A stretch of DNA of 64,000 nucleotides from an uncultured Candidatus Saccharibacteria bacterium. Lineage in GTDB: Bacteria > Patescibacteriota > Minisyncoccia > UBA6257 > JAGOQP01. Both the position numbers and the translations under genes were made by a program. Under the pieces are notes generated by a model. The model was not told the DNA's origin, ran no database searches, and saw only the letters and a list, made by a program, of their open reading frames with translations. Shown piece by piece: positions 12,626-54,810 of the stretch. Within the stretch, counting starts at the first letter, position 1, and each line of letters opens with the position of its first letter. The stretch is from positions 7,765-71,764 of the forward strand of contig CAYQSO010000002.1 of the NCBI GenBank assembly GCA_964420205.1, read 5' to 3'.

Positions 12626-13960
12626 TCATTCTAAAACAATTACATTTGAAGTTACTAATTCGCTTTTTCTTGCTTCATTGTACTCTCTTTTGTTGTTGCT
12701 TGCAACAACTACTTGAGTTTGTTTTAACACTCCACAAGCTTTACTAACTCTAACAGAATTAAAGTTAGTTCCCGACAAGCCATCGGTACATGTATTCCTT
12801 ACTTCATTAAGTAGGATATAATCTTTACAGTTCTTGAGATTAACTGCTGCATTGTAGTCTCTTTGGTGCTCTGCACCACAATTACTACATTTCCAGTTTC
12901 TATCTTTTAATTTTAGTTCTTTATTCTTCTCTCCACAGCTACTACATAACTTACTACTTGGAAAGAATTTATTTACTTCTCTTACTTCTATATTATGTTT
13001 TGTACACTTCTGTACAAGAACTTGTTTAAAATAGTAAGGTTTATTTTGAAGAATAGTTTTAGAAAGATGTTTGTTCCTAACCATTCCTTTAATATTTAAG
13101 TTTTCAACTGTAACATATCTAGGTTTCCCCTTAACTATGTTATCTATACATTTATTAGTATAAGAGTTTCTTATTTGTTCTAACCTGTAGTACACTTTTT
13201 CTACTCTTAGTTTATTTTTAATATAATTGTTACTTACTTTATCTCTCTTTTCTTTCTTCTTAGCTTCGTACTTTCTACTTAAAGCTCTCTGTTCTCTTCT
13301 TAATTTCTTTTCTAACTTTTTAACTCTAGTAGTTTTATTAATGTTTTTGTATTCTTCTTTGTTAGAACATGTTAAGAAAGTACTTATTCCCCAATCAATA
13401 CCAATACCTTCATTACAATTCTTATTATCTTTACTACTCTCTTCATCTGTTATAACAGAGATGAAATATCTATTAGATCTCTTAGTTATTACTCCACTTA
13501 TTATTTTATTGTTTCCTGTAGGGAGGTATCCTTTCTCTTTCAGAGAAACCTCTCCGAACATAGGAATTTTAATTTTATGCCTAGAACATCTTATAGGTCT
13601 GTTTGCCTCTACTCTAACAAAATAAACTCCTGTCTTGTCTTTAGAAGCTTTTTTAAATTTAGGAAATCCTTTCTTTGATTTAAATGCTTTTTGGTAAGTT
13701 GAATTACAATTATCTATAGTCTTTCTAAGAGCTTTACTCCCTGCTTCTTTCAACCAATGTTTATCTTCGTTCTCTTTTAAATAAACATTATTAAACCATT
13801 TAGAGAACTCGTAGTTATTAAGATATTTTTCTCCTGCGGAGTAACGTTCTTTATTAACAGAAATAAAAAGATTCCAGACAAATCTACATGCAGAAATTGT
13901 AAGCTTGTAAAGCTTCTCCTGTTCTTTATTTAGTTTTACTTCTGTCTTGTAAGCTTTCAT
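12626..13960 (-). CDS. tnpB: TnpB (IS200/IS605-family OrfB; OMEGA RNA-guided RuvC nuclease), copy 1
   Basis: Canonical MKAYKTEVKLNKEQEKL N-terminus, C-terminal zinc finger CSSCGEKN...CSNCGAEHQRDYNAAVNL (RuvC-III). The track ORF extends to 14086, but Met43 at 13958..13960 is the likely start, judged by alignment to copy 2. Confidence 0.85.
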   Translation of the reverse strand: MKAYKTEVKLNKEQEKLYKLTISACRFVWNLFISVNKERYSAGEKYLNNYEFSKWFNNVYLKENEDKHWLKEAGSKALRKTIDNCNSTYQKAFKSKKGFPKFKKASKDKTGVYFVRVEANRPIRCSRHKIKIPMFGEVSLKEKGYLPTGNNKIISGVITKRSNRYFISVITDEESSKDNKNCNEGIGIDWGISTFLTCSNKEEYKNINKTTRVKKLEKKLRREQRALSRKYEAKKKEKRDKVSNNYIKNKLRVEKVYYRLEQIRNSYTNKCIDNIVKGKPRYVTVENLNIKGMVRNKHLSKTILQNKPYYFKQVLVQKCTKHNIEVREVNKFFPSSKLCSSCGEKNKELKLKDRNWKCSNCGAEHQRDYNAAVNLKNCKDYILLNEVRNTCTDGLSGTNFNSVRVSKACGVLKQTQVVVASNNKREYNEARKSELVTSNVIVLE

Positions 13961-13993
13961 TGATAAAAAGAAAAGTTCTAAGAAATTATTTTG

Positions 13994-14057
13994 TAAGCAG
14001 ATACAATTCTTCCTAGAACTAAAATTAATATAAATCTTATTTAATTGTATCTGCTTA
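13994..14057. repeat. perfect 15-bp inverted repeat (taagcagatacaatt / aattgtatctgctta) with 34-nt spacer in the presumed IS left end
   Basis: Read directly from sequence (13994..14008 and 14043..14057); lies between the real tnpB start and the over-extended track start. Confidence 0.7.
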
Positions 14058-14175
14058 ATATTATAATTTAACTTAAAATTTTTCATTTAGATTTCCCTGT
14101 AAAGGTATTAAAAATGAATATGTTTTACATATATTTGATTATGTTATGGGAGACTGTTCATTATCTTCTCTCCTC

Positions 14176-37664: not shown

Positions 37665-38047
37665 ACCTTACCCACTAATATTTCGTAAATATCTCTAACA
37701 ATATATATGTCATCCCATTCTTCATCTGTAATTTCAATATTAAACTCATCTTCTAAAGCCATCACTAGCTCAACTTCATCTAAATAGTCTAAGGATAGAT
37801 CTTCATAAATATTAGAATCTATATCTATTACTATATCACTCCCTCTTAAATAAGTAAAGTACTTATAAAGAACATCATAAATTTTATTTAATACATCATT
37901 ATCTAAGGAATCTTCTCTATCATTTTTATAATAATTCTGATAGTAATAATAAACATCGTAACATTCTTCATATCTTGTAATATAATCGGAATAACTATGT
38001 ATTAATTTAATAAGTTGTTCTTTATTTAGTTTTTTAAGGTCTAACAC
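37661..38047 (-). CDS. acyl-carrier-protein-like protein (ACP helix-II look-alike; canonical phosphopantetheine Ser replaced by Tyr)
   Basis: C-terminal [25 protein letters not shown] aligns with E. coli ACP [25 protein letters not shown], but the DSL serine position is Tyr (DYL). Verified by manual back-translation. Confidence 0.5.
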   Translation of the reverse strand: [128 protein letters not shown]

Positions 38048-38268
38048 TAAGACTCTCCATATCTTCTGTAAGCTTCTGATTTAGGGTCAAATACCCCTTC
38101 GGATTCTAAATAAACCAATTTAACACACCCTAATTCCATACCAACGTCTTCCTGTACATATAAGTCTCCTAAGTAAGGTGACTTTCCTAATTGCTGTGAT
38201 AAATAACCTATCCAATTAGTTTTATTTTCTTTGTACGTTTTAGGATGAACCTTTACTACAAATCCCAA
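38047..38268 (-). CDS. hypothetical small protein
   Basis: 73-aa ORF. Confidence 0.25.
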   Translation of the reverse strand: MGFVVKVHPKTYKENKTNWIGYLSQQLGKSPYLGDLYVQEDVGMELGCVKLVYLESEGVFDPKSEAYRRYGES

Positions 38269-38353
38269 ATTTATTTCTCCTTAAATAAAAATAGTTTACT
38301 ATTTATTAGAATAATAAACTACTTTTTATCTTGTGTCAATACGTAGATTTATT

Positions 38354-41300
38354 TTAGAGCGGTTTCGGTATTAAAGTAGTACGTGATTCATCATCTACCC
38401 ATTTAAAATCGAATATTTGTCCAAAACGATACCCCAGTCCAATTGTAGCTTTAATAGGCAAAGGCCAATCTGGTAAGCTAAAATACATTATATCTTCTAT
38501 TAACCTAGTGTATTCTACTATTTTATCTAAATCAACATAAAGGTTCACTTCGTCATGTATTGTCGAAAGAAAAGCACACTCTTTTTCTTTTTCGGATATA
38601 CTAAATATTTTCTGATACATCTTCTTAAGAACTATACGCATAATATCCCCCGCACTTCCCTGGATTATGTGGCTGCTGACTCTTCTCTCAGCAGCAGATA
38701 TCATATTATTTGACTCTCTTTCACCTTTCCTAGGGTCTTCTGCTTCTCTTTCTATCCTCTCAGCCATATTTACATATGACCCGAAGCGTCTGGGCCTCCC
38801 ACAGAACGTAAATGTAGTTCCGGCATTATTCCACATCTTATTTATTTCATTTTGTCTCCATTGCATAGCCCCAAAAAAAGCTTCACAATAGGCATCATAA
38901 AGAGCTGTTGCGTGTTCTAACGGGATTCCAGAATTCTTAGATATGGAATCAGAATGACCACTATAATTTATAGCAAAATTCACAGCCTTTGCTATTTTTC
39001 GTAGCCCCTTGTTATAATTTTCTCTACCCCATATAGCGTACGCTGTCGCAGTATGTGGATCAATACCTTCCCTGAAATTTGATAACTTTACACTATCTTT
39101 ACTGTAATTAGTAAGGAGAACGTCTTCCTGTGAACTGTAATCCACACTCAAAATAATCTTTTTCTTACTATTAACCTTTTTAAATGATGGAACTACTACA
39201 CAATTTCTAATATTAAAATTAGGGGAGAACCCTTCTACTAAATAACAGTCTTCTGAGTCAGTGTGGTTTTTAATGTCTTCATCAGACATTAAATCAAAAC
39301 ACCAACCTAATATATTACCCTCTTTCTCAGATTTGTATGCTTTATAAATCGCTCCTGACGGTTTACTAAGATTCTGCGCATTAAGATCTATATAATAGGG
39401 GTTCTTAGTCTTCTTATCACTCTTACTCCCATTACCACTTGCAAATCTCCCTGAAGCGGTCCCAAAAAGTTTATATCTCATCCTACACTCATCTACCTTA
39501 GTCAGTTTATCAATGTAACTATTGATAGCCTTATTCATAGTAGAGTACTTCTGTATCTTCTTTAAAATACTTAACTTTTCATTTTCTTTTTTAAGCATTA
39601 TTTTTAATATTTTTAAAAAATATTTTCTATTGAGAATTCTACTTCCTTTTTTAAGCGGAACTAGTTTCTTATTTTTATTCTTTCTTTTCGCTCTGCTCAA
39701 TACTCTTATAGTATTGTTATTCAACTGCATTACTTGGAAATAGTCACTCCCATGTGCTTCTAGTATTTTATATAAATAAAACATATCTACGTGTTCTCTT
39801 ATATGTAATTCTGAAGCACAAAATCCTTTTGTAAAATAACCTTCTTCATTCTTTTCTAATTTTTCTATAATACCTCGTAAATCTGTTAAATTCTTAGAAA
39901 ATATTCTTGTACCATCTTTTTTACCAAAAGAAATCTGATCTGTATCTGTCCTTGCCCCAGTATCTATATTCTTAGATGCCATAGCATTTTTAAACTCTTT
40001 AGAAGAGGTACTAAGGTTGAATATTCCTATATCAAAATAATTATATATTTCCTCCTTAAGCTGAGTTATTACTTCGATAGCTTTTTCTTTATATTTTTTA
40101 GCTTCTTCTTTATCTATATAAAGTTTAGTATGTCCATAATAATCAATCCAATACCTTATAAGAGTGTTGTCTGATTTTATAACGTCAAATTTTTTACCGT
40201 TAAACTCTACTATATTGGGGTAAGTACTTATTAGTTTTTTAACTTTCGGATATAAATAGTAAAAAAGTGCCAAGCAGCAACATGAGTCTGCACAATTACC
40301 CGAAACCAAGACTTTACCATTTCTTCTAGTTATTAAAGTGTGATTTGGTACTTCTGCACAATAAACCACCCCACTATATGGAACAATTTCTCTCTGGTAT
40401 TTCTTGTATCTAACACTTTTCTGTCTTTGTGTGTACACACTATAAATTTGGTGCACATTTTCTCTTTTTATTACACGTCCTCTAATAACACAGTCTTTTT
40501 TAGGTGGTGCTTTTAAAGTTAATATACTAGTCCTACCACCCAACATTAATAGCTCTTGTAACTGATTAGCCATTTTGATAGATGTAGTATAAAAAACCCA
40601 CGCTGAGTCAGTTTTTCTAGACCCATCACAATAATTAAAATATTTTAGAAACTCATTTATACAGTACGAATCCATTTTAAAAATTTCAGGTGGAATATAC
40701 TTTTTCTGAGCCTTACCTTCCATATAAGGTTTTATCCAATTATAAAACTTTTTATTATAACAAACCCAGCTATTCCCTTTTTCTCTTTTGTTAGGGCGAA
40801 ACCCCATATTAGTTTCCATTAACATATTTTCTAACTCTTTTTTGAATTTATCGCTACAAACAGCCAGCCCTATGTGATAACAAACTTGCTTGTCGCCTCT
40901 TTGAACAATCCAACCATCTGCCAACAACGCACCTGTTAATCTGGCTAATTGTACAGGGGTTAAATTAACATTCTTACTAAAATGAAAAGAATCCTTCCCA
41001 CTACCTTTCTTCTCTGTGGGAGCTTTATAACCGCTTTCTTCAACTAAAAGATCTTTTGCCTGTTTGAATACCCATTCTTTATGTTGTGCTCGCTTAACTA
41101 GCATATTATGGTTGGGGGTAACACAAAAATCAAGATGTTTACTTTTATAAGAAATCATCTCTCCTTTATATTCATACGCATATAACCTTAGAGGACGCTG
41201 GTACTCTAATTCATCTTTTTCCACATTTACAGTAGCTAAAAGGTCTTCTCCATTATAATCTTTCCACATTACCCAACCATTTTCAGTCAATACTTCAGTC

Positions 41301-42319
41301 TGATCATCGTGGCATGCATAAATAACTGTGCTCCTATCGTAGGGGCATACATACTTGAATTCACCCGGAAATTCTAACATAGTACGTCCTAGATACAATT
41401 TAGCACTTAACTTAAGTCCTGCCATTTTTGACTCCGCATCAAAAAGATACGGAAGTATCATAGAGTCAAAAAAGTTAACTTTTTCAATAGAATAACCTTC
41501 TTTCTTATACATATTAAGGTCAAATTCAGCATTATGGATTACTACTAACTTTGCACTTGTTAAAGCTTTATATAAAATATCAAGGGACTTTTTTGCACTT
41601 CTCTCATTTTCTTCTTCTGTTAAAACATAACTAGAAACTTCCATTTCAGATAAATGCTTTTCAAAGTCTCCTATCATACAGTCTATACTACCAAGTTTAG
41701 CTTCTACTACTTCTTTTTCTAAATCTTTAGAATTTTCAAGAAAGTTTTCTTTATCTTGTTTTAACCCATCTATTAATTTTTGCGTCTCTTCTCTTTGTCT
41801 CTGTAATTCTAATTGCTCCCTTACTTCTTTGCTACATATATTTCCATTATGTAATGAATACTCATACGTCTTTACCGTAGTCTGACTTACTCTTCCTGTT
41901 TTAGTATATACTACATTTCCTTCTTCATCTAATTTAGGAACTTTTTCTGAACCCACTTCTTTTTTTCGCATATGTCTCAAAGGGCAATAAATCCCCGAAT
42001 TGTCGTCCAGTGAAAGAGAGAACCCTACAATGTAATCACCACCTTCTTCTCGAGGTGAACTGTTCAGTCCAGTAGTTTCAGTGTCAAACCCGATTATCTT
42101 ATCTTTACAAAGTTCTACGAATTCTTCCAACTCTTCTAAAGTATTAACAAGTTTATAGTCCCCTAAATAAATAAGATTCCCTTCCTCATCGTATTTATGA
42201 AACTTATTATCAAACTCTCTATAACCATGTACAGGTATATATTTGTACAACGTTTTACTGCTTTTTTTCTTTTGTTCTACCTTTTGTTGAACATATTTTT
42301 TCTTATAATCTTTTGTCAT
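38354..42319 (-). CDS. family A DNA polymerase (3'-5' exo plus polymerase domains) precursor containing an intein
   Basis: Exo I IGFDTETTGL; polymerase motif A LSVDYSSQE, motif B RKIAKAVNFAINYS, motif C LSTIHDEVN. The likely true start is MTKDYKK, 12 codons inside the track ORF (which begins at 42355). Confidence 0.85.
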   Translation of the reverse strand: MTKDYKKKYVQQKVEQKKKSSKTLYKYIPVHGYREFDNKFHKYDEEGNLIYLGDYKLVNTLEELEEFVELCKDKIIGFDTETTGLNSSPREEGGDYIVGFSLSLDDNSGIYCPLRHMRKKEVGSEKVPKLDEEGNVVYTKTGRVSQTTVKTYEYSLHNGNICSKEVREQLELQRQREETQKLIDGLKQDKENFLENSKDLEKEVVEAKLGSIDCMIGDFEKHLSEMEVSSYVLTEEENERSAKKSLDILYKALTSAKLVVIHNAEFDLNMYKKEGYSIEKVNFFDSMILPYLFDAESKMAGLKLSAKLYLGRTMLEFPGEFKYVCPYDRSTVIYACHDDQTEVLTENGWVMWKDYNGEDLLATVNVEKDELEYQRPLRLYAYEYKGEMISYKSKHLDFCVTPNHNMLVKRAQHKEWVFKQAKDLLVEESGYKAPTEKKGSGKDSFHFSKNVNLTPVQLARLTGALLADGWIVQRGDKQVCYHIGLAVCSDKFKKELENMLMETNMGFRPNKREKGNSWVCYNKKFYNWIKPYMEGKAQKKYIPPEIFKMDSYCINEFLKYFNYCDGSRKTDSAWVFYTTSIKMANQLQELLMLGGRTSILTLKAPPKKDCVIRGRVIKRENVHQIYSVYTQRQKSVRYKKYQREIVPYSGVVYCAEVPNHTLITRRNGKVLVSGNCADSCCCLALFYYLYPKVKKLISTYPNIVEFNGKKFDVIKSDNTLIRYWIDYYGHTKLYIDKEEAKKYKEKAIEVITQLKEEIYNYFDIGIFNLSTSSKEFKNAMASKNIDTGARTDTDQISFGKKDGTRIFSKNLTDLRGIIEKLEKNEEGYFTKGFCASELHIREHVDMFYLYKILEAHGSDYFQVMQLNNNTIRVLSRAKRKNKNKKLVPLKKGSRILNRKYFLKILKIMLKKENEKLSILKKIQKYSTMNKAINSYIDKLTKVDECRMRYKLFGTASGRFASGNGSKSDKKTKNPYYIDLNAQNLSKPSGAIYKAYKSEKEGNILGWCFDLMSDEDIKNHTDSEDCYLVEGFSPNFNIRNCVVVPSFKKVNSKKKIILSVDYSSQEDVLLTNYSKDSVKLSNFREGIDPHTATAYAIWGRENYNKGLRKIAKAVNFAINYSGHSDSISKNSGIPLEHATALYDAYCEAFFGAMQWRQNEINKMWNNAGTTFTFCGRPRRFGSYVNMAERIEREAEDPRKGERESNNMISAAERRVSSHIIQGSAGDIMRIVLKKMYQKIFSISEKEKECAFLSTIHDEVNLYVDLDKIVEYTRLIEDIMYFSLPDWPLPIKATIGLGYRFGQIFDFKWVDDESRTTLIPKPL
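40295..41314 (-). mobile_element. intein in DNA polymerase (about 340 aa, LAGLIDADG type) inserted in the Exo III motif (YA|C..D)
   Basis: VIYA|CHDDQTEVLTENGW...LARLTGALLADGW...FLKYFNYCDGS...VPNHTLITRRNGKVLVSGN|CADSCCCLALFYYL; the extein junction restores the Y-x-x-x-D exo motif. Coordinates by residue counting (aa 348..687). Confidence 0.6.
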
Positions 42320-42644
42320 TATTAAAATTAACTCCTGTACTAGATAAACCAACATTAGTGAAATTAAAATCTTTGTACTTCCACCAATCTTTTTTCTTCA
42401 TCATCTTTTTAACTTTTCTTGGGTACTTATCCCACCTACAGTACTTCCCGATACCTAATATGTAATTAAATATTATTAATTTTACTCTATTTTCTATATT
42501 AGTTTGAATTTCTCCCACACATTCGCCATAGGGCTCTCTTACAGCAGAAGTAGCAGTATCTCTTGACTCACATAAATATTGAGACGATATTCCTGTTGCC
42601 ATAACAATGTCTTGTCTTAATTTATATAATCTCTCTTCTATCAT
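42303..42644 (-). CDS. hypothetical protein
   Basis: 113-aa ORF upstream of the polymerase. Confidence 0.3.
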   Translation of the reverse strand: MIEERLYKLRQDIVMATGISSQYLCESRDTATSAVREPYGECVGEIQTNIENRVKLIIFNYILGIGKYCRWDKYPRKVKKMMKKKDWWKYKDFNFTNVGLSSTGVNFNNDKRL

Positions 42645-43828
42645 CTATTAATTCTCTCTACTACTTCTCCTACACCTAAATTCATTAAATATTCCTGAGC
42701 TGTTGCAGGTAAAATCCTAATATCATCTCTTAACTCTTTTTCTAATATCTCACACTGCTCCTGTTCTAAAATATTTTTCGCCATATTATCTATTAAACAC
42801 CTTTTATCAATATCTTTTAACTCTAACTTTATATCCATCCTACCATCTCTTAAAAAGGCTCGGTCTAATTTATCAATATGATTAGTTGTGAAAAAACAAA
42901 TAAGACTTTCCGGTGTATTTATTCCGTCAAAAATATTCAAAAGATTTGACAATGATAACCTACTGTCACTATCATTACTATTATATACAATACTACCTTC
43001 CCCCCCACTATTTCCTCTACTCTTACTCAAACATCTCTCATGTACGTCTACTCCCGCTGCATCAATGTCCTCTATGAGAAATATTGTATTTTTATTACAA
43101 GCCAATATTCTCTGTAAATCATTAAAACTACCCATAGTTTCTAAATTAACTATACATATTTTAAAACCAAAATAAGAGGCCAGCGCCCATACTAATGAAG
43201 TTTTACCTGTCCCTGGAGTTCCATAAAATAAATAGTTTCTCTTATAAGAAATTCCTTTAGACCTATAGGATTGTTTACTGTCTAAAAAAGAACTTATATC
43301 TTTTATTAAAAAATCTTTATCTTTCTGCGAGAGAGCTATTGTATTTAAAGGTCTTTTACCCTTTAAAAACCTAGTATACCCTGAAATAACTACAACGTCA
43401 TCCTCATAAGCAGAATCATTAAACTGCGTTACCTCATCTAATATAGTACTAACATCTTTAAGGTTTCCGAAAAAAACTTTTATTGTAATAGAATCTATTA
43501 CTTTAAAACTTCCATTTTTATCTATTCTCTCTTTTCCCACAGAACAAAATTTCCCGTTGATATTATAAAGAGACTGGCCATATCCTACACCCAAAAAAGT
43601 TTTTTCTACTTCTTCATTTTCTTTTAATTGATAGGTATTACAAAATACTACCTTCTGTTGCCCCAACCACCCCTCTAACTTATTAAATAATTCTTCATTT
43701 ACAGAGTTATCTATAGTAATCTGTTTATAAACTAAATTACTTATTAAATCAAATAAACTAGTTACATGATTTTTTAAAGTAACGAATATTAACCCGCCTA
43801 TTCCTAATTCTATTCCTGATATAGTCAA
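42641..43828 (-). CDS. BCS1-like AAA+ ATPase
   Basis: Walker A LFYGTPGTGKTS, Walker B IFLIEDIDAAG, and LSNLLNIFDGINTPESLICFFTTNHIDKLDRAFLRDGRMD matching the BCS1 sensor and arginine-finger region. Confidence 0.75.
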   Translation of the reverse strand: MTISGIELGIGGLIFVTLKNHVTSLFDLISNLVYKQITIDNSVNEELFNKLEGWLGQQKVVFCNTYQLKENEEVEKTFLGVGYGQSLYNINGKFCSVGKERIDKNGSFKVIDSITIKVFFGNLKDVSTILDEVTQFNDSAYEDDVVVISGYTRFLKGKRPLNTIALSQKDKDFLIKDISSFLDSKQSYRSKGISYKRNYLFYGTPGTGKTSLVWALASYFGFKICIVNLETMGSFNDLQRILACNKNTIFLIEDIDAAGVDVHERCLSKSRGNSGGEGSIVYNSNDSDSRLSLSNLLNIFDGINTPESLICFFTTNHIDKLDRAFLRDGRMDIKLELKDIDKRCLIDNMAKNILEQEQCEILEKELRDDIRILPATAQEYLMNLGVGEVVERINR

Positions 43829-43838
43829 TTTATAAAAC

Positions 43839-44054
43839 CTATATCTTTCCTGTTATGTATAAATGTAAACAATAACAATAATCACAAATAATTTTATTCT
43901 CTAATAAATAAGAAAATCCTTGAGGAAATTTTGTCCTACATTGTTCACATATTATTTCTGTATTAAACCATTCCTCATTTTCTTTTCTCATTTCTTCTAT
44001 ATCTGATTTAAACAACCTCACCATTCTACCACCATAACAGATGCCATAGTCCAA
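43839..44054 (-). CDS. hypothetical zinc-ribbon protein
   Basis: CEQCRTKF...CDYCYC; 71 aa. Confidence 0.3.
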   Translation of the reverse strand: MDYGICYGGRMVRLFKSDIEEMRKENEEWFNTEIICEQCRTKFPQGFSYLLENKIICDYCYCLHLYITGKI

Positions 44055-44118
44055 TTCTGTACTCTAAAACCTACTATATTACTCAGTAAAATTCTCTTCA
44101 GAAATTTTCCTAGCTTCT

Positions 44119-44856
44119 TTAGCCGTTAACATCTACGCACCCCATTTTTTCTTTACACATATAATATTCTCTTAGACAATTTCCACAATCCTTACACTTT
44201 ATAACTCCGTCACAATAATATACTAACTTATTCTTATAAATATCTTTTAGCTTATTAATATAATCTATTTTTAAACACCAGTAACTATTAGTAACCCGTT
44301 GCCTAAATTCATAATAATCTTTATAATCTTCAGGGCCTCTTTCATTATAATATGACATAAAAGTCAAGACTACCGGTATATTATTATCTGTATAATAATG
44401 TATCGCAGGTTCTACTACACTTTTTAAATTCCACATATTAACTCTAACCCTAACAAACATCAAATTACTTGGTACAGGACTTAATTTATGAAAAAATTTA
44501 TCTGTCATTTCCGCAGGGTTAACCGTTAATACCACAGGGGCTTTAAAACCCTCAATATCTCTTGGGATAGATGTATTATAAAAATAATCATCAAATTGCT
44601 CTGCCGTAGACATTACGAGTTCTCGTTGAATATTTGAGTCATTCCCGTCATTCATACGAACCACCTTTCCTTTAGTCATTTCTAACGATGGTATGTGTGG
44701 TAAATTTTCTGACAGCGGCTCTATATACGAACGTCCACTTTGAAAAAAACAATCTTTACATCCTACAGGACATTCACCCTCTTGTGGAATACATTCTATT
44801 ATTCCACTGCCTATTAACTTAGGATTTCTTTTAAACACCTTACTACTCACTTTCAC
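44119..44856 (-). CDS. Fe-S protein with radical-SAM-type CX3CX2C motif and second C-terminal Cys cluster
   Basis: ECPVGCKDCFF (C-x3-C-x2-C) at residues about 29..36; C-terminal CDGVIKCKDCGNC...C...C; 245 aa. No clear GGEP-like SAM motif seen. Confidence 0.35.
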   Translation of the reverse strand: MKVSSKVFKRNPKLIGSGIIECIPQEGECPVGCKDCFFQSGRSYIEPLSENLPHIPSLEMTKGKVVRMNDGNDSNIQRELVMSTAEQFDDYFYNTSIPRDIEGFKAPVVLTVNPAEMTDKFFHKLSPVPSNLMFVRVRVNMWNLKSVVEPAIHYYTDNNIPVVLTFMSYYNERGPEDYKDYYEFRQRVTNSYWCLKIDYINKLKDIYKNKLVYYCDGVIKCKDCGNCLREYYMCKEKMGCVDVNG

Positions 44857-45424
44857 AATTGTTATACTTAACTATATAATCATATAAATCTTCTATTGTC
44901 TTTATATTATTTACTACATAAAAACTATCATCTTTTGTTTTATACACAAAATCCTGAAATAAAGCTAACCCGTCTTCTCCAACACAACCTTCTAATGCTA
45001 CTTCAAACGAAAATAAAATACTCTCGTAAATTTCATCTGTATTTATAAATCCTGTGTCTTCTAATTTTTCTTTATCCTGTACATATTTTATATAATAATC
45101 ATAAATACGAATAAACTTCTTTTTAGATATATTTATGTTAGTATCCAAATAAACAATATCCCCACTCTCCACTAGGTAGTCATTTGAATTTATAAAATAG
45201 CCCGTAGTGCAGCCTGTATCTAACCTAGAATTTGGTTCATATCCAACCTCATAAAGCTTACACTTACCCTCTTCCCAAAAGTCCCCAACGTGTTTTTTAC
45301 ACACATGCCAATAATTAACAGAATAATTAAGACTACACTCATCCACTACCGTAAAATAAGCTGGACTCTCACACCGAACACCATCTTTACAGTAACAACA
45401 CTTAATTTCCTCTTCTTCACTCAT
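44843..45424 (-). CDS. hypothetical Cys-rich protein
   Basis: IKCCYCKDGVRCES plus further Cys and His residues; 193 aa. Confidence 0.3.
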   Translation of the reverse strand: MSEEEEIKCCYCKDGVRCESPAYFTVVDECSLNYSVNYWHVCKKHVGDFWEEGKCKLYEVGYEPNSRLDTGCTTGYFINSNDYLVESGDIVYLDTNINISKKKFIRIYDYYIKYVQDKEKLEDTGFINTDEIYESILFSFEVALEGCVGEDGLALFQDFVYKTKDDSFYVVNNIKTIEDLYDYIVKYNNCESE

Positions 45425-45429
45425 TCACT

Positions 45430-45897
45430 TCACCCACCCAAACTGTAAACTTTCTCTATATAATCTGACACATCTTCTTCACATTCTATATAAGTATTAT
45501 TTAAATACTCTATTTTCTTTTCTAACAGAGCAGAATCAATATTAATATATCCTTTTTGGAGTGCTTCATATAACGGTAAAATTTCTTCTTTATTCTTATT
45601 TTTTATTAAGTATTCATAAGGGTCTTCTTCCATTACCATTGTTACGTAATCGTATACAGAATAATTTCTTCTTGATGTCCAGCAGTGCAACTCTTGAATA
45701 TCTTTTTCATCGTTATAAAACATCTTAGAAGCAGGGGATCTTAAATTTTCCGAATACCCTTCTGCTGGATGAAACTTACAGTAAATGTTTCCTGTGTTAC
45801 TATCAACCCCATCATAATAAGAATCTAACTCTGCAAAAGTAAACAATCTTTCTACTATTACTCTTAATATTTTTTTATTGTTTTTTAACTGCTCCAT
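45430..45897 (-). CDS. hypothetical protein
   Basis: 155-aa ORF. Confidence 0.3.
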   Translation of the reverse strand: MEQLKNNKKILRVIVERLFTFAELDSYYDGVDSNTGNIYCKFHPAEGYSENLRSPASKMFYNDEKDIQELHCWTSRRNYSVYDYVTMVMEEDPYEYLIKNKNKEEILPLYEALQKGYINIDSALLEKKIEYLNNTYIECEEDVSDYIEKVYSLGG

Positions 45898-46231
45898 TTT
45901 ATATTCCTTTTTAAATTATATTTTTTTAAATATTCTTGTAATGAAATTTCTTTCCTGTACGGTATAGAGATTGGTCTAAACCAGCGTATTTTCCAATATT
46001 TTTCCACCGATCTTTGGAAAGAAATTTGTGACAAGCTCTCTCATAGTTTAACCCATATATTACCCGTTCCATTTGTTTTTCCGTGAAACTGTATCTTTGT
46101 TTTATGGTTTGTATAAATTCTTTAGTATAGTCTACACTCCCATAGACATTTTAATAAAATCATACCACTTAGGGCTATCAAATGGAACTAGTCTTGAAAA
46201 ATCTACAATAACAGTTGAATATTCATCTCTT

Positions 46232-47764
46232 TTAATCAACATCCATGAAATCCTCATCTACCATTGCTTCTACATCTTCTTGCGAACAATCTTCTTTTAT
46301 ATTCGTAACTTTTTCTCTAAACTTATCTATATCCCCCCTTCTTTCAGTTAAGTCTATTATTGCTTCACCCCCTATAATACCTTGTGCAAAATTAGAATGT
46401 AACTTTATAGGTGTACTCGGCACTTCTCCTTCTCTTGATTTAGAGAAATATATATTAACTCTTTGTAACGACCTCATCGGGGGGTCCGAATAAATTACCA
46501 TACCTACTGTACATCTATCCCCCAATGCTCTGTATTGTCTAAATACTGTCGGGTCTATTTTTACATCACTTTTCTTTTCCCCGTCAGTATTCATGTTTTT
46601 TTCATTTTTAATTATTTTAGCAATACCCTCTTGACTTAATTGTGTAAGGAACAGAAATACAGTACCATATCCATCACAATATGTTTTAACAAAATCGTCA
46701 GTCTCTATTATGTGGTTATTAACATTATCATTAGCGTCTGACGATACCCCCCTGAATCTTTTTAAACTATCTACGTTTTCTATTATAACGAGGTCAGCGG
46801 GTCTCCCTCTATCCCCTGCTATTTTCTCCAACTTAGCCTTAAACTCCCCATAAGTGTTCATACTGAAATCTTCAGCCCCCAACGGGTTTAAAAATCCATC
46901 AGATTCCTTTAATTTTGCAAGTAATGATGTCATGTTCTTTTTATATAGAGTTTTTCCACCGTCATCTAACTTGTTCTGCCTCATATCTTTATAAATCATA
47001 TTATCTTTAGAATAATAACTCTCTATAGCTACCATTCCCATCCAAATGTACTCTTTAGGGTCTTCAAAAGATATGTAATCTACAAACTTACCGCCATGAA
47101 CCGATGCATTATACGCTATCGTTCTTGCTAAAGTTGATTTACCAGAAGCATTTGGACCTCCCAAGACAGCAATACTTTTATTTCCCAATACACCTATTAT
47201 ATTATCTATTAAAGGAATATGCGTTTTTATACCGTTATAATTTTTAGAAAATTCCTCATAAAGATTAATAAGAGATTCTTTTGTTTGTTTATTATCCTCT
47301 AAATTTCTAAAGGAGTAGTTAGTTAGGAGCTTTACAAATTCTTGTGCTTTTTCAGGGTCTACATTATGGGGGTCACTTAAAAGTAACTCCTTGTCCAAAT
47401 GAATTATTTGTACATCTAACCACCTTAAAAACTCCTCATAAATATAAAATGACCAATCATACCTATAATCTTCTTTAATTATTATATTCTTATCTTTAAA
47501 TCGTGCACTTAAACATTTTACATCAGGAAATTTACCGTGTTGCTTGAAAAATTGATTGTAAGCGTAATCATACCAGTCCCACATAGTAAGAGCCGGATTA
47601 CTAAATCTCTTTGCTACAGGGTGGTACTTTACTTTATCCAATCTATTCATAATAGCTTTAATAAGTTCGGGTTTTTTATCAAACTCAACTAAAGAATTTA
47701 ACATAATCCAATTAAGTCTCTCGGGTGTGAGTTTCTCTTGGAATTCCTTTTTAAATACTACCAT
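46232..47764 (-). CDS. DnaB-family replicative helicase
   Basis: RecA-fold C-terminal domain with Walker A IAVLGGPNASGKSTLA, Walker B VIIENVDS, FLTQLSQEG (H3-like) and YRALGDRCTVGMVIY (arginine finger region); about 190-aa N-terminal domain. Confidence 0.65.
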   Translation of the reverse strand: MVVFKKEFQEKLTPERLNWIMLNSLVEFDKKPELIKAIMNRLDKVKYHPVAKRFSNPALTMWDWYDYAYNQFFKQHGKFPDVKCLSARFKDKNIIIKEDYRYDWSFYIYEEFLRWLDVQIIHLDKELLLSDPHNVDPEKAQEFVKLLTNYSFRNLEDNKQTKESLINLYEEFSKNYNGIKTHIPLIDNIIGVLGNKSIAVLGGPNASGKSTLARTIAYNASVHGGKFVDYISFEDPKEYIWMGMVAIESYYSKDNMIYKDMRQNKLDDGGKTLYKKNMTSLLAKLKESDGFLNPLGAEDFSMNTYGEFKAKLEKIAGDRGRPADLVIIENVDSLKRFRGVSSDANDNVNNHIIETDDFVKTYCDGYGTVFLFLTQLSQEGIAKIIKNEKNMNTDGEKKSDVKIDPTVFRQYRALGDRCTVGMVIYSDPPMRSLQRVNIYFSKSREGEVPSTPIKLHSNFAQGIIGGEAIIDLTERRGDIDKFREKVTNIKEDCSQEDVEAMVDEDFMDVD

Positions 47765-48292
47765 TTAATATACTGCTCCATTCGTAGAAATTGATTGTGG
47801 GGTACTTGTAAACTTACCTACACCTTTAATATCATCCGTTCTTAAATATACCATCTCTATCTCATCTTCTATTTTTTCAAAATACTTTAAATTCTTTTCA
47901 GTTAATATTAGAGTATAACAATTTTCTAATCTATTTCTATTTCCTACTATATCTAATAATACATCTTTTATATAACTTTCAGTATTCCCTGTTTCTATAG
48001 TATTCTTATGATAAACAATTATCATTAATTCTGGACAAGGTAAAGGTGTATTAGAAAACTTGTAGTCTAACAACTCACCTACTGTAAAAGTAATATAACT
48101 ATAGTAATCATTATTAGTATAGAGTAAAAAAGTATTAACAAATTTCTTAAGTGTTTTATAACTAGTAGAAAATGCCACATAAGACTTTTTCTGTAAGTTA
48201 AGAGCATCAAAATATTTTGATTCCTTCTTAGAAAAAGGTACATCATACTTTCCTAAGTATATCTTAAGTTGTTCAAAAAAATTATCTGACAA
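47765..48292 (-). CDS. hypothetical protein
   Basis: 175-aa ORF immediately downstream of the helicase, overlapping its stop and start. Confidence 0.3.
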   Translation of the reverse strand: MSDNFFEQLKIYLGKYDVPFSKKESKYFDALNLQKKSYVAFSTSYKTLKKFVNTFLLYTNNDYYSYITFTVGELLDYKFSNTPLPCPELMIIVYHKNTIETGNTESYIKDVLLDIVGNRNRLENCYTLILTEKNLKYFEKIEDEIEMVYLRTDDIKGVGKFTSTPQSISTNGAVY

Positions 48293-48363
48293 TCTCTACT
48301 ACTCCAATAAATTAAACTACTATATAGAATAGCAGTTTTTTAAAAATAAATCAAGTAGTAAAA

Positions 48364-49083
48364 CTATTTTTTAAGTTTCCTACTTCTACGTCGCCATAAA
48401 ATACTTTGTCTTACCTGCTCAAAAACATGCTTATGGTAATTATCATATTCTGCTGTAGGTATTGAGTTACAATGTAGAAGCCCCTCTTCTATAGTAGACC
48501 TACTACTTAGTAACTCTTTAGAATATTCATCTATAGTTCCATTAACTATTATAAACCTTATTTTAAATATATCAAACTTACCAAACATCCTAGCAATACG
48601 CCCAATAACCTGCCTAAATTTGCGATACGCAGTGGGTACTGTATAAAGGATAAGTTCATCAGTAGGATTAAGATTAAGAGAGGCTCCCCCCGCATCACTA
48701 ATAAAAACTATCTTTCTTTCTGGATTATCATGAAACCAGTCTTCTACTTCTTTTCTTTTGTGTGTTTTCTCAACACCTGTTATCTTTTTACACTGAACGT
48801 TAATGTCTTTACTTTTTATAAATTCTATTAAATTAGAGATTGTTTTTACTCTTTTTGCATAAACAACTACACCTTTATCTATAATCTTTTTACCAGAATC
48901 CTCATCCACTACCTCAGCCAATACTTTAAAGAACAAGTCTTTTTTCTCATCGGTATTATCTACATATTCCTGCATATCGGCAAGAGCAGCACCGACATTT
49001 AACTTCTTTTTCTTCTCTTTAGAAGAGTTACTCTTCTTTATTATATTTAGTGCTTTTTGTAGATTTAGATTTATCTTTGGCAT
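48364..49083 (-). CDS. SF2 helicase, C-terminal domain (motif VI)
   Basis: FRQVIGRIARMFGKFD corresponds to helicase motif VI (QxxGRxxR); continuation of the upstream ORF after a frame change. Confidence 0.5.
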   Translation of the reverse strand: MPKINLNLQKALNIIKKSNSSKEKKKKLNVGAALADMQEYVDNTDEKKDLFFKVLAEVVDEDSGKKIIDKGVVVYAKRVKTISNLIEFIKSKDINVQCKKITGVEKTHKRKEVEDWFHDNPERKIVFISDAGGASLNLNPTDELILYTVPTAYRKFRQVIGRIARMFGKFDIFKIRFIIVNGTIDEYSKELLSSRSTIEEGLLHCNSIPTAEYDNYHKHVFEQVRQSILWRRRSRKLKK

Positions 49084-49891
49084 TTTTTTCCAACCCTATC
49101 TTTATTATACTATCATACTCTTTATAGTCTTTTAACTCAGTAGTATATTCAAAAAACTTTAAATTTATTTTAGGGAAATAAAAATAAGTAAACGATTCGA
49201 GCTCTTTTCTTAGTCCTGAAATATTAATGTACTCTACAGGGTCCATTCTAAGAAACTTCCCCCTCCAATCTTTAACTTCTTCTTCTACTATATATTTTTG
49301 TTTAAATTCCTTTATAGCACTGCTTAAATATTTATAATATTTTTCCGGTCTTACCAAACACATCATACCTAAAACCTGTAACAAAGAACTCGACCACGGG
49401 GTAGCTGTCATCGCTATGATTCTATCCCACATAAAATAAATTTTCTGGTAAGCACCGTGAACTATAGAATCGTAGTTATTCATTTCGTGTGCTTCATCTA
49501 TAATTAGTAATATCTTCTTATAATTCTTAGTTAAAGACTTTTTAAAGAATTGAATGTTTTCTTCATCTAACCCAATATCCTTAATCATAGAATGTTTTAT
49601 TAAAATTATTTTATCATCACCCTCAACAGCCTTTTTAAAATCTTCTACTAATTCAATTATACTTAGTTTTATACCTAATTTTTCAGCATCTTTAATAAAA
49701 GGAGTCGTTGCTGAAGGTGTTGCTACAATAACTATTTTATCTATCATTTTATTTTTATACAAATAACGTCCTGTAAAGACCGAGGATAGGGTCTTACCTG
49801 CACCTGCTGATACAAACCATAAACACTTCTTAATATTTATAGCAAATTTAGCTGCGTTTTGCTGATAATCTCTTAAAACTATTTTTTTCAT
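49028..49891 (-). CDS. SF2 helicase, N-terminal RecA-like domain (motifs I, II, III)
   Basis: Walker A FVSAGAGKTL, DEAH box LIIDEAHEM and motif III MTATP. Overlaps the downstream ORF by 56 nt in another frame. Confidence 0.6.
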   Translation of the reverse strand: MKKIVLRDYQQNAAKFAINIKKCLWFVSAGAGKTLSSVFTGRYLYKNKMIDKIVIVATPSATTPFIKDAEKLGIKLSIIELVEDFKKAVEGDDKIILIKHSMIKDIGLDEENIQFFKKSLTKNYKKILLIIDEAHEMNNYDSIVHGAYQKIYFMWDRIIAMTATPWSSSLLQVLGMMCLVRPEKYYKYLSSAIKEFKQKYIVEEEVKDWRGKFLRMDPVEYINISGLRKELESFTYFYFPKINLKFFEYTTELKDYKEYDSIIKIGLEKNAKDKSKSTKSTKYNKEE

Positions 49892-50406
49892 TATGGATTG
49901 AATACCTCTGGGTAACCTGTAAAAGTTTCAATCCCGTCTATATGAACATACCCTTTAGGAACAGTTACTTTGTCTATTTCTATTCTTTTAAAAAATTTTA
50001 ATCTACCTTGTATCATCAAATCCCATATAAAATTAAAAAATAACTGATACTGCTTATTAGCAGGTTCTAAATCAAAAGCTCTAAAAGAACAATGAGCACT
50101 TAAATAAGGTATTTTCTTACCTTTTACAATAGAATCTATGTTTGACCTCAATCCTCTCTGTGTCATATTACCATTAAAAGCCCACGTATTTATAAAAATG
50201 CCCTTAGACAGGACTTTAAGATCAGAGAAGGTATCACAATATTCTTCCCACTTTTCTCTTATAAAATCTAACTCCCTCGGAGCTTGTTCAGGGAACATTA
50301 ACCATAAAAATTCCTCTCCAAAACGAGGAACATAATAATTATATACTAAAGGGCTAACTAACTCCTTTAAAATAAAATGTTCACACTTATACATACTACA
50401 CACCAA
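49891..50406 (-). CDS. LAS-superfamily zinc peptidase (M15-like), possible peptidoglycan hydrolase
   Basis: SAHCSFRAFDL fits S-x-H-x4-A-x-D and the downstream GYVHIDG fits the second His ligand of M15 peptidases; 171 aa. Confidence 0.4.
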   Translation of the reverse strand: MVCSMYKCEHFILKELVSPLVYNYYVPRFGEEFLWLMFPEQAPRELDFIREKWEEYCDTFSDLKVLSKGIFINTWAFNGNMTQRGLRSNIDSIVKGKKIPYLSAHCSFRAFDLEPANKQYQLFFNFIWDLMIQGRLKFFKRIEIDKVTVPKGYVHIDGIETFTGYPEVFNP

Positions 50407-51310
50407 TTAAACTTAAATTAACTTTATAAAACTGACATAACTGTGTTAGTTCTTCCTTAGAAATTGTGCTAAGTAACATTTTAGTGTTACTTAAAATAGA
50501 TTTATCTTTCCAACAATCCAACAAAGATACTAATTTATAATTTAATAAGATAGTATCAAAATTTTCTGCTATCTTATGTTTTAAAGACATATCTGTTAGA
50601 TTACATATTATGTTATCTGCTAAATTCCCCTCATCTAAATATTTACCATTCCACTTCTGTATTATAGCTTTCACATCCTTATAATTTATTTTCGGAATTG
50701 CTGGTTTAATATTATCTGAAATATCACCTTTAAAAGTTTTCCATAATACAGATGTTTTTAAATCCTCCGATATAAAACTATAATCATTATCTTTACCTAC
50801 TTTAAACTTTTTATTAAGGTCTTTTTTAGATAGGGTTATGAATTTCCCGCCCCTATAGTTATTCGAAAGACTTATATTAGGAAATCCGCACAGTTGGATA
50901 AGATCCTTATCCCCACTATGTATTGTTGCTTCTTTACCTTTTCTAGACTCTTTTACCGCTAGTGCTGCAATAACTTCATCTGCTTCATGAAATTTATTTC
51001 GTAATATAATGAATTTACTATTAAAAGAAGATAAAATCTTTAAAAAATCACCCCAATTTTTATAAACAGTTTCTTTTTTATCCCCTCTCCCAGATTTATA
51101 TTCTGGATAGAGTTTTTTCTTTTCGTGGTTCTTTAAATCAGAATCTAATACAATATAAATCTTTCCAAACTCTTCTAGATTATTTCTTGCTATAAGATTT
51201 AAAAAATAACAAGTACCATAAATTCCGGGGTCTTTATAACCTTGACCATCATTTACATACCAATACCTATGGAAAACATATGATAAATCTACTATTAAAA
51301 TTTTTTCCAA
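50396..51310 (-). CDS. 5'-3' exonuclease / flap endonuclease (FEN, T4 RNase H-like)
   Basis: N-terminal ILIVDLSYVFHRY, IYIVLDSD and YPEYKSGRG (the YKxxR motif of the 5' nuclease family), plus a downstream acidic cluster. Confidence 0.7.
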   Translation of the reverse strand: MEKILIVDLSYVFHRYWYVNDGQGYKDPGIYGTCYFLNLIARNNLEEFGKIYIVLDSDLKNHEKKKLYPEYKSGRGDKKETVYKNWGDFLKILSSFNSKFIILRNKFHEADEVIAALAVKESRKGKEATIHSGDKDLIQLCGFPNISLSNNYRGGKFITLSKKDLNKKFKVGKDNDYSFISEDLKTSVLWKTFKGDISDNIKPAIPKINYKDVKAIIQKWNGKYLDEGNLADNIICNLTDMSLKHKIAENFDTILLNYKLVSLLDCWKDKSILSNTKMLLSTISKEELTQLCQFYKVNLSLIGV

Positions 51311-53339: not shown

Positions 53340-54810
53340 TATTGTTCTCCTTACCTATTGACTTTTAATCTGTTGAACTAAAGACTCTATATACAAATCA
53401 AACTGCTCCAAATTAGTAACTTTAAACATAATTTATCCTACTTGAAGTTACTAATTCGCTTTTTCTTGCTTCTCCAGTATACCTGTTAGGTATACAATCG
53501 TACTCTCTTTTATCACCAGAGGCGACTACTTGAGTTTGTTTTAACACTCCACAAGCGTTAATTCCCGACAAGCCATCGGTATTTACACTATTTAACAATG
53601 TGTATTCTTTACAATTCTTAAGGTTTACTGCTGCATTGTAGTCTCTCTGGTGCTCTGCACCACAACTACTACATTTCCAGTTCCTATCTTTTAATCTTAA
53701 CATATTATTTTTAGTATTACAAATACTACATAATTTAGATGAAGGGTAAAATCTACCTACTTCTCTTACTTCTATATTATGTTTAGTACACTTTTGTGTT
53801 AGAGTTTGTTTAAAGTAATAAGGTTTATTTTGTAGGGTAGCTTTACTTAGATGTCTGTTTTTAACCATTCCTTTTACATTAAGGTTCTCAATAGAAACAA
53901 ATTTAGGTTTCTTCCTAACTATATCATCAATACACTTATTAATGTAGGAATTTCTTATTTGTTCTAACCTATAATGAAGTTTAGAAACTTTATCTTTATT
54001 CTTTATATAATTGTTAGAAACTCTATCTCTTTTCTCTTTTTTCTTGGCCTCGTACTTCCTATTTAAAGCTCTCTGTTGTCTTTTAAGATTTTTTTCTAGC
54101 TTCTTAATCTTAGTAGTCTTATTAATATTTTCGTAACTAGTACTATTAGAACATGTCAAATATGTACTAATCCCCCAGTCAGCACCAATTCCTTCATTAC
54201 AATTCCTGTAATCTCTCGTACTCTCCTCGTATACTATAACAGAGATAAAATACTTACTAGCTCTCTTAGTTATTGCTCCACTTATTATTTTATTAGACTC
54301 TATAGGAAGATATCCTTTTTCTTTTATGTGTATCTCTCCAAACATAGGAACTTTTATCTTGTGTCTCTCACATTTAATAGGTTTATCTAAAGATGCTCTT
54401 ACAAAATATACCCCTGTCTTATCAGTAGAAGCTTTTTTAAATTTAGGAAATCCTTTCTTCTCCTCCATAAATTTAACATAAGTATTATCACAATTCATCA
54501 TTGTCTTCCTAAGAGCTTTACTTCCAGCTTCCTTTAACCACTGTTTATCTTCATTCTCTTTGAGATACTCATTATTGAACCATTTACTAAAGTTGTAGTT
54601 ATTAAGATATTTTTCTCCTACGGAGTATCTTTCTTTATTAACAGAGATAAACAAATTCCAGACAAACCTACAAGCTGAAGTAGTAAGCTTGTAAAGCTTT
54701 TCCTGTTCCTTATTTAATTTTATCTCTGTTCTATAAGCTTTCATTAATGGGACTGTTCTATCTTTTATACTCATCAAATGTGTAAAATAATGTTATTAAA
54801 ATTTAATTTA
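53340..54810 (-). mobile_element. second TnpA-less IS605-family element (boundaries approximate)
   Basis: tnpB copy 2 with a 10-bp inverted repeat aattagtaac/gttactaatt flanking its stop codon (53411..53456) and a 3' flank partly shared with copy 1 (aaacataat). Confidence 0.45.
53422..54744 (-). CDS. tnpB: TnpB (IS200/IS605-family OrfB; OMEGA RNA-guided nuclease), copy 2
   Basis: MKAYRTEIKLNKEQEKLYKLTTSACRFVWNLF N-terminus; CSICNTKNN...CSSCGAEHQRDYNAAVNL C-terminus. Roughly 70 percent identical to copy 1 by eye. The track start at 54777 is 11 codons upstream of the canonical MKAY start. Confidence 0.85.
   Translation of the reverse strand: MKAYRTEIKLNKEQEKLYKLTTSACRFVWNLFISVNKERYSVGEKYLNNYNFSKWFNNEYLKENEDKQWLKEAGSKALRKTMMNCDNTYVKFMEEKKGFPKFKKASTDKTGVYFVRASLDKPIKCERHKIKVPMFGEIHIKEKGYLPIESNKIISGAITKRASKYFISVIVYEESTRDYRNCNEGIGADWGISTYLTCSNSTSYENINKTTKIKKLEKNLKRQQRALNRKYEAKKKEKRDRVSNNYIKNKDKVSKLHYRLEQIRNSYINKCIDDIVRKKPKFVSIENLNVKGMVKNRHLSKATLQNKPYYFKQTLTQKCTKHNIEVREVGRFYPSSKLCSICNTKNNMLRLKDRNWKCSSCGAEHQRDYNAAVNLKNCKEYTLLNSVNTDGLSGINACGVLKQTQVVASGDKREYDCIPNRYTGEARKSELVTSSRINYV

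Follow-up and report, generated by a model that had tools for sequence, protein, structure and literature searches.

A predicted intein with a nested LAGLIDADG endonuclease in the proofreading motif of a phage family A DNA polymerase

What becomes of a DNA polymerase when the last motif of its 3'-5' exonuclease site is split by 340 amino acids that many of its relatives do without? The question is raised by a 64,000-nucleotide stretch of DNA (here called the window; contig CAYQSO010000002.1, positions 7,765 to 71,764, from an uncultured Candidatus Saccharibacteria bacterium assembly), in which a phage family A DNA polymerase gene is interrupted within the Exo III motif. The insertion is very probably an intein of the class 1 type with a nested LAGLIDADG homing endonuclease, lying between Ala347 and Cys688 of the polymerase and inside Exo III (Y-A/C-A-D; a slash marks a junction, here and in the motifs below). 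The gene and its parts, in window coordinates, are these:

38354..42355, minus strand: precursor open reading frame (ORF) of 1333 amino acids, a family A DNA polymerase with a 3'-5' exonuclease domain, interrupted by the predicted intein (ORF translation; PF00476 and PF01612)
41315..42355, minus strand: N-extein, residues 1-347, ending in VIYA, with Exo I (D91, E93), Exo II (N275, F278, D279) and the Exo III Tyr (Y346) (residues invariant in 53 homologs; junction)
40295..41314, minus strand: predicted intein, 340 amino acids, protein residues 348-687, running from Cys1 to Gly339-Asn340 and followed by Cys688 at the +1 position
38354..40294, minus strand: C-extein, residues 688-1333 plus the stop codon, starting C688-A-D690 (D690 is the Exo III Asp) and holding the polymerase domain

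The host protein has the full set of features of a family A polymerase with a DEDDy exonuclease: Exo I (D-x-E), Exo II (N-x2-3-F or Y-D), Exo III (Y-x3-D) and the PolA domain. DNA_pol_A (PF00476) matches precursor residues 1063-1310 at E 1e-34, and the NCBIfam DNA polymerase I model matches the precursor at E 4e-42, under its equivalog cut-off. The naming of the exonuclease residues is assumed to follow what is established for Klenow-type DEDDy exonucleases, and does not come from a structural superposition. When the spliced exonuclease domain was compared with PDB sequences using phmmer there were no matches, and Klenow residue numbering is not transferable by alignment; because that comparison gave nothing, the Exo motifs are defined here by their invariance among homologs and by the Pfam profile.

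That profile locates the break. DNA_pol_A_exo1 (PF01612) matches precursor residues 257-337 (E 5e-8) and stops at profile position 138 of 173. Excising the insertion in silico extends the match from profile positions 64-138 to 64-170, across the junction. The exonuclease match is continuous after excision, and the insert therefore parts the Tyr and the Asp of Exo III. In translation the two junctions read STVIYA/CHDDQTEVLT and KVLVSGN/CADSCCC, and joining the flanks gives Y346-A-C-A-D690, a Y-x3-D Exo III motif. The original prediction had placed an intein at 40295-41314, from CHDDQ to VSGN, and had claimed that joined exteins restore the motif. The coordinates are exact to the residue (348-687), and the Tyr and Asp of the restored motif are conserved among 53 relatives.

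These relatives come from a search of the 993-amino-acid protein, spliced in silico, against 5.8 billion proteins, which yielded 53 polymerases of the same clade. All are 38-50% identical to the spliced protein, except one copy at 99%. In a MAFFT alignment, about 40 of the homologous polymerases (40-50% identity) have nothing between the equivalents of A347 and C688, and their motif runs on as a continuous Y-x-Y-A-C-x-D, for example YVYA-CCDT. The inserted segment is thus not a conserved polymerase domain. Y346 is invariant (53 of 53), and D690 is found in 51 of 53; in the two exceptions an insertion nearby has shifted the alignment. The Exo I and Exo II residues are also invariant among the 53.

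A separate insert of 79 amino acids lies between Exo I and Exo II (PolA residues 176-254; 41594..41830, minus strand). It is highly charged (KEVREQLELQRQREETQKLIDGLKQDKENF...), probably helical, missing in nearly all of 52 homologs, and not intein-like. The polymerase gene as a whole found no match by megablast among 50,697 phage records, hence no close cultured relative, and the C-extein found none in IMG/VR. Base composition is uninformative as a sign of recent acquisition, with 34.1% G+C in the intein and 32.7% in the gene.

Within the 340 residues, the arrangement is that of two splicing parts flanking an endonuclease:

40994..41314, minus strand: predicted N-terminal splicing (Hint) part, intein residues 1-107, with block A CHDDQTEVLTENGW and block B T66-P-N-H69 (kept in same-site mini-inteins; conservation)
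40415..40993, minus strand: predicted nested LAGLIDADG homing-endonuclease region, intein residues ~108-300 (mini-intein deletion boundaries; PF14528; I-DmoI matches)
40910..40948, minus strand: LAGLIDADG motif 1, LARLTGALLADGW, intein residues 123-135, with D133 and G134
40619..40651, minus strand: LAGLIDADG motif 2, FLKYFNYCDGS, intein residues 222-232, with the acidic D230 (invariant column in the alignment)
40295..40414, minus strand: predicted C-terminal splicing part, intein residues 301-340, with block F VVYC319AEVPNH325TLI and block G KVLVSG339N340 (family conservation; kept in mini-inteins)

Both LAGLIDADG-like strings quoted in the original prediction are found, at intein residues 123-135 and 222-232. 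Each motif combines an acidic residue with a glycine (D133-G134 and D230-G231), as in the pseudo-dimeric two-motif type of these endonucleases, whose core runs alpha-beta-beta-alpha-beta-beta-alpha. LAGLIDADG_3 (PF14528) matches in two stretches with E 1e-6 and 29.4 bits, above its cut-off of 22.5.

The fold is indicated by modelling. An AlphaFold2 model of the intein, built from a 66-sequence alignment, has a mean pLDDT of 95.1 and a pTM of 0.92, with no segment below 50, and predicts a Hint fold. When the model is compared with the PDB by Foldseek, the top matches are inteins that contain endonucleases: TliVMA 7qsu (E 1.5e-16), PhoVMA, PI-PkoII 2cw7, PI-PfuI 1dq3 and PI-SceI. Next come the free-standing LAGLIDADG endonuclease I-DmoI, mini-inteins (6frg, 4e2t), a bacterial intein-like domain and the Hedgehog Hint domain 1at0. 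The endonuclease region also matches I-SceI and WhiA. Similarity to Hint domains, on which the original claim of a LAGLIDADG intein in a family A polymerase hinged, is therefore found, in the structure match and in profile matches below threshold.

An RNA intron was considered as well and is rejected, since Rfam found no RNA intron families in the polymerase gene.

Conservation was counted in an alignment of 87 family sequences, 83 of them with the endonuclease domain. The positions that matter for splicing and cleavage are:

Block A position 1: Cys1 (86 of 87)
Block B: T66-x-x-H69 (Thr or Ser at 66 in 87 of 87; H69 in 87 of 87)
Block B position 12: Met (Met, Leu, Ile, Val or Phe in the family, never Trp)
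LAGLIDADG acid 1: D133 (Asp or Glu in 82 of 83; Gly134 in 82 of 83)
LAGLIDADG acid 2: D230, in D230-G231 (81 of 83)
Block F position 4: Cys319 (85 of 87)
Block F His: His325 (50 of 87)
Block G position 5: Ser (mostly Cys or Ser in the family)
Penultimate residue: Gly339 (87 of 87)
Terminal residue: Asn340 (86 of 87)

The nucleophiles of class 1 splicing are all present. In standard inteins, Asp is common at block F position 4 and His is common at the penultimate position (PMC2807308, PMC5050341). The penultimate His is typical and not obligatory; Gly339 stands in its place, and the usual role of the His is presumably taken by other residues, with His325 a candidate. The Cys at block F position 4 raises the possibility of a class 3 intein, a class that has no N-terminal nucleophile and uses a triplet of Trp (B12), Cys (F4) and Thr (G5) (PMC2807308, PMC5050341). 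This assignment is rejected, as Cys1 is conserved in 86 of 87 sequences, position B12 is Met and never Trp, and G5 is Ser. Penultimate Gly and block F Cys had gone unremarked in the original prediction, and noting them refines it.

The 340 amino acids taken alone reveal a family that has moved between genes. They match 91 proteins with E from 3e-41 to 3e-5, mostly over 100% of their length and at 24-35% identity. A HMMER search run exhaustively over 1.84 billion cluster representatives found 10,327 proteins at E<=0.001, 271 of them at E<=1e-30, and many of these proteins hold more than one copy of the element. With full-length matches (E 3e-41 to 1e-8) among the 91 proteins and with the 10,327 cluster representatives, the similarity is not due to chance. 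More than 10 unrelated host proteins carry family copies with identical boundaries, and hosts include a papain-family protease, ThyX, ribonucleotide reductase (RNR), MCM, ATP-dependent ligase, type II topoisomerase, RecT, a metallophosphatase (phosphoesterase), peptidase M15 and RNA polymerase beta. Across the 82 relatives whose ends are complete, the element without exception begins with Cys, closes with Gly-Asn and is followed by Cys, Ser or Thr at +1. Among annotated genomes of cultured phages, copies are found in ThyX of Corynebacterium phage P1201, in RNR and NAMPT of a Staphylococcus phage and in RNR beta of Tenacibaculum. Lak megaphages, a cluster C mycobacteriophage (nucleotidyltransferase), a Gordonia phage (terminase) and a Vequintavirus (DNA polymerase) carry further copies.

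Two side observations concern this spread. The non-polymerase hosts with the best E-values in the 340-residue search are papain-family cysteine proteases (relatives P0001-P0009 and P0013), where copies occupy one or other of two neighbouring positions around the catalytic Cys, QGxLGS/C and QGxLG/SC; one of these is on a contig of a metagenome-assembled genome labelled Thaumarchaeota. PHROGs places the segment in its "thymidylate synthase" and "ribonucleotide reductase" families, because those profiles contain inteins, and this is a source of mis-annotation.

The Exo III site itself is found in full, mini and empty forms within the polymerase clade. Full-length inteins of 339-340 amino acids occupy the same site in P0122, P0124, P0201, P0202 and P0226, and in the incomplete sequences P0018 and P0215. 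Mini-inteins of 146-153 amino acids occupy it in P0126, P0142, P0143 and P0144. The mini-inteins are without the equivalent of query residues ~108-300, the endonuclease region, and their splicing blocks are strongly conserved (CVTPNHNM, YVYCAEVPNHTLITRRNG). Empty sites exist at the same position. A neighbour-joining tree of the splicing domain, a distance tree with no support values, puts all PolA Exo III inteins in one clade. Their splicing domains are 48-58% identical to the query (52-58% for same-site alleles), compared with at most 47% for inteins from other hosts. With its full, mini and empty alleles, this one site offers natural material for studying the homing cycle, and natural mini-inteins of 146-153 amino acids with a Gly-Asn end are possible splicing tools.

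A second insertion point lies 4 codons downstream (YAxxDA/C...GN/C), and P0130, P0134 and P0204 carry inteins of the same clade there, which suggests that the target site has shifted slightly inside one motif. Counting occupied alleles too, 33 of the 53 clade homologs have Cys at the +1 position, 9 have Ala and 6 have Val; every occupied allele has Cys. Going by intein chemistry, alleles with Ala or Val at +1 could not support splicing.

Several points weigh against the interpretation as an active class 1-type intein with a homing endonuclease. The curated splicing profiles fall short of their cut-offs: Intein_splicing (PF14890) reaches 26.0 bits where 35.8 are required (E 9e-6), and TIGR01445, matching intein residues 5-73, reaches 17 bits where 24.5 are required, although both matches have significant E-values. 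The phmmer search of the intein against PDB sequences gave no matches. The assisting positions are non-canonical, with penultimate Gly for His and Cys for Asp at block F position 4. No near-identical allele without the intein turned up when one was sought, the nearest empty polymerase being just 50% identical. The sole near-identical contig (ENA ERZ23495300 scaffold_3154, sample SAMN06140901, 13,238 nucleotides) has the same intein with zero differences within it. One practical consequence is that annotators who use curated Hint profiles could miss the splicing domain, since the LAGLIDADG profile alone passes its cut-off.

How much do these points favour other explanations? One alternative is an intein in decay, where the Hint domain still splices because polymerase function needs it, the LAGLIDADG endonuclease is already inactive, and the element is inherited vertically on its way to becoming a mini-intein. 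The same-site mini-inteins show repeated loss of the endonuclease in this lineage, and same-site alleles are 41-43% identical over the whole intein compared with 53-58% over the splicing domain, so the endonuclease is much less conserved. In the window's copy, however, D133, D230 and the glycines that follow them are intact and conserved across the family, there is no frameshift or stop, and the endonuclease domain is modelled with high confidence and no disordered segments. Decay is unlikely on balance, though it deserves appreciable weight.

A co-opted conditional switch is a more doubtful proposal. Here splicing would be tuned, with redox state acting on the Cys-rich junction as one possible cue, and would delay or gate polymerase maturation and proofreading during infection. 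The first seven residues of the C-extein, C-A-D-S-C-C-C, include four Cys, and CCDTSG stands there in most relatives; Cys1 and the near-invariant Cys319 are both active-site thiols; and it has been argued that variation in the penultimate residue tunes splicing rate in phage replication proteins (PMC5050341). The pattern of presence and absence, with mini and empty alleles, is nonetheless that of a purely selfish element. A related and equally speculative idea is that Cys1, the block F Cys and the penultimate Gly together make a distinct catalytic or regulatory variant, either with redox-gated or rate-tuned splicing or as an intermediate between class 1 and class 3 with the block F Cys as an alternative nucleophile, which in combination with CADSCCC could gate proofreading.

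Very improbable is an insertion that no longer splices, leaving a polymerase pseudogene or a proofreading-deficient enzyme. The missing penultimate His, the Cys in place of Asp at block F position 4 and the sub-threshold Hint profiles speak for it. Yet the same Gly (87 of 87) and Cys (85 of 87) characterize a family that many phages carry in essential genes, a homologous member with both features splices efficiently (PMC5050341), all nucleophiles are present, and the 4 kb polymerase ORF is unbroken in DNA of 33% G+C. A non-mobile, lineage-specific accessory domain retained in the mature polymerase has nothing but its in-frame position to recommend it and is effectively refuted by the ~40 homologs without the insert, the identical boundaries in more than 10 unrelated hosts, the predicted Hint fold and the parting of two invariant catalytic residues of one motif.

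If the element is the active intein proposed, established intein chemistry suggests how it would work. The 1333-residue precursor would be translated with its exonuclease site split. Cys348, which is Cys1 of the intein, would undergo an N-S acyl shift at the Ala347-Cys348 bond, and Cys688 at +1 would attack the resulting thioester (trans-thioesterification) to form a branched intermediate. Cyclisation of Asn687 would free the 340-residue intein, and an S-N shift would then leave the exteins joined by a native peptide bond. The product would be a 993-residue polymerase in which the Y346-A-C-A-D motif is whole and the proofreading site restored. With splicing predicted, the annotation of the mature polymerase should be 993 amino acids and not 1333. 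Either the freed intein or the precursor would cleave, as a site-specific endonuclease, the intein-free polA of co-infecting relatives, and repair of the cut allele would copy the intein in, which is homing. The candidate target is the reconstructed 42-bp intein-free site, AGGAGCACAGTTATTTATGCA joined at the insertion point to TGTGCAGACTCATGTTGCTGC, and the intein-free target sequence for the predicted endonuclease reads AGGAGCACAGTTATTTATGCATGTGCAGACTCATGTTGCTGC.

The same polymerase clade hosts a different intein. In P0127, P0129, P0131 and P0132 it sits in polymerase motif B (KKAKA/C...SHN/CNF), with a canonical His-Asn end, and it comes in full-length (418-421 amino acids) and mini (131-136 amino acids) forms. 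The window polymerase is empty at this point (residues ~1124/1125, about 38981..38986) and has Val at the would-be +1 position. The near-identical ENA contig, which is collinear with window positions 37830..51067, differs from the window by 8 substitutions over 13,238 nucleotides, all inside 50 nucleotides (38907..38956, minus strand, PolA residues 1134-1150) and 7 of them non-synonymous. In relatives the second intein occupies a position in motif B, and this patch is 10-26 codons downstream from there. It could be a co-conversion tract, target-site variation from a past homing or loss event, or a mere patch of local recombination.

The rest of the window supplies further mobile and intein-like elements. 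All of its large ORFs are on the minus strand, and they include phage tail, replication and nucleotide-metabolism genes. Those of interest here are the following:

6557..9928: class II RNR, 1123 amino acids, with two intein-like inserts (boundaries read from the sequence alone)
8672..9607, minus strand: RNR insert 1, 312 amino acids, with a LAGLIDADG match; CFKSDTEF...ILTKN/C (Lys-Asn/Cys end)
7490..7894, minus strand: RNR insert 2, 135 amino acids, mini-intein-like; CFTGDMKLL...FMVHN/C (His-Asn/Cys end)
12626..14086, minus strand: TnpB (IS605 OrfB / Cas12f-like), 486 amino acids
53422..54777, minus strand: TnpB (IS605 OrfB / Cas12f-like), 451 amino acids

RNR insert 1 is distantly related to the family of the PolA intein (E 5e-10). 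The original prediction also spoke of two RNR inteins, two tnpB copies and a phage heavily colonised by selfish elements. Both pairs are present, and the description is accurate for the window, at three inteins and two tnpB. An Rfam RAGATH-18 RNA match (64.7 bits; 12667..12738, minus strand) overlaps the 3' end of the first TnpB ORF, as expected of a TnpB guide-RNA region; the second TnpB ORF (53422..54777) has no RAGATH-18 match at the Rfam gathering threshold. An SNF2/ResIII helicase is encoded as two overlapping ORFs on the minus strand, an ATPase half of 287 amino acids (49028..49891) and a Helicase_C half of 239 amino acids (48364..49083). The same split is found on the independent ENA contig, and it may represent a programmed frameshift or a genuinely split gene.

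Inteins in replication proteins, bacterial DNA polymerase I among them, are documented (PMC4760082), as are phage inteins with variable penultimate residues (PMC5050341). In the literature searched, which did not cover InBase and does not prove absence, no account was found of a family A polymerase carrying an intein within Exo III, nor of two polA insertion points 4 codons apart in that motif. The site may be a new insertion-site allele for an intein of known kind. It changes no concept, as inteins in the active sites of replication enzymes are well known (PMC4760082).

Among known systems, PI-SceI, PI-PfuI and TliVMA/PhoVMA share the query's two-part build of a Hint splicing domain and a LAGLIDADG endonuclease (Foldseek E 1.5e-16 to 1e-9, TM 0.55-0.63), although they have 9-15% sequence identity to it and no sequence-level match. 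They have the canonical penultimate His, are larger and carry extra DNA-recognition regions. Class 3 inteins, such as Bethlehem DnaB, share the block F position 4 Cys and a phage-centred distribution with the query family, but differ in lacking an N-terminal nucleophile and in having the Trp-Cys-Thr triplet, where the query family has Cys1 and never Trp at B12.

Relatives at the sequence level are found in phages. In tblastn the ThyX intein of P1201 matches over full length, as do ThyX, RNR and NAMPT inteins from Staphylococcus, Tenacibaculum and T5-like phages (24-28% identity, E 1e-14 to 9e-24). The CxxxxTEVLT ... GN/C, S or T architecture of the query recurs in metagenomic relatives lodged in these host genes (ThyX and others). 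The inteins of P1201 and of the Staphylococcus, Tenacibaculum and T5-like phages sit in other host genes and at other sites, and none is in a polymerase exonuclease motif. The intein of the Vequintavirus Mangalyan, an Escherichia phage, belongs to the same family (24% identity over full length), ends VCGN/C and lies in a family A polymerase. It differs in sitting in the polymerase domain (GDAH/C...CGN/CNNAKA) of an unrelated polymerase lineage, in a gene whose annotation makes no mention of an intein.

An experimentally studied counterpart is the RDF/phosphoesterase intein of mycobacteriophage Bethlehem (AY500153; gp52 in GenBank and "gp51" in Kelley et al. 2016). Homology to the query covers its full length (hhalign 99.7%, E 5e-26; BLASTP 20% identity, E 1e-8), and like the query it has Cys1, T-x-x-H, a Cys at block F position 4 (VWCLRVPN), a Gly-Asn end (TGN/S) and a nested LAGLIDADG domain. 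The differences are in a metallophosphoesterase host, an insertion site of GNHD/C...N/S, Ser at +1 and an N-terminal block of CSWTNARAVT compared with CHDDQTEVLT. Its endonuclease was found to be toxic on cloning (PMC5050341). With its native Gly, the Bethlehem RDF intein splices essentially to completion, and replacing that residue with the more usual His (G316H) slows splicing (Kelley et al., PMC5050341).

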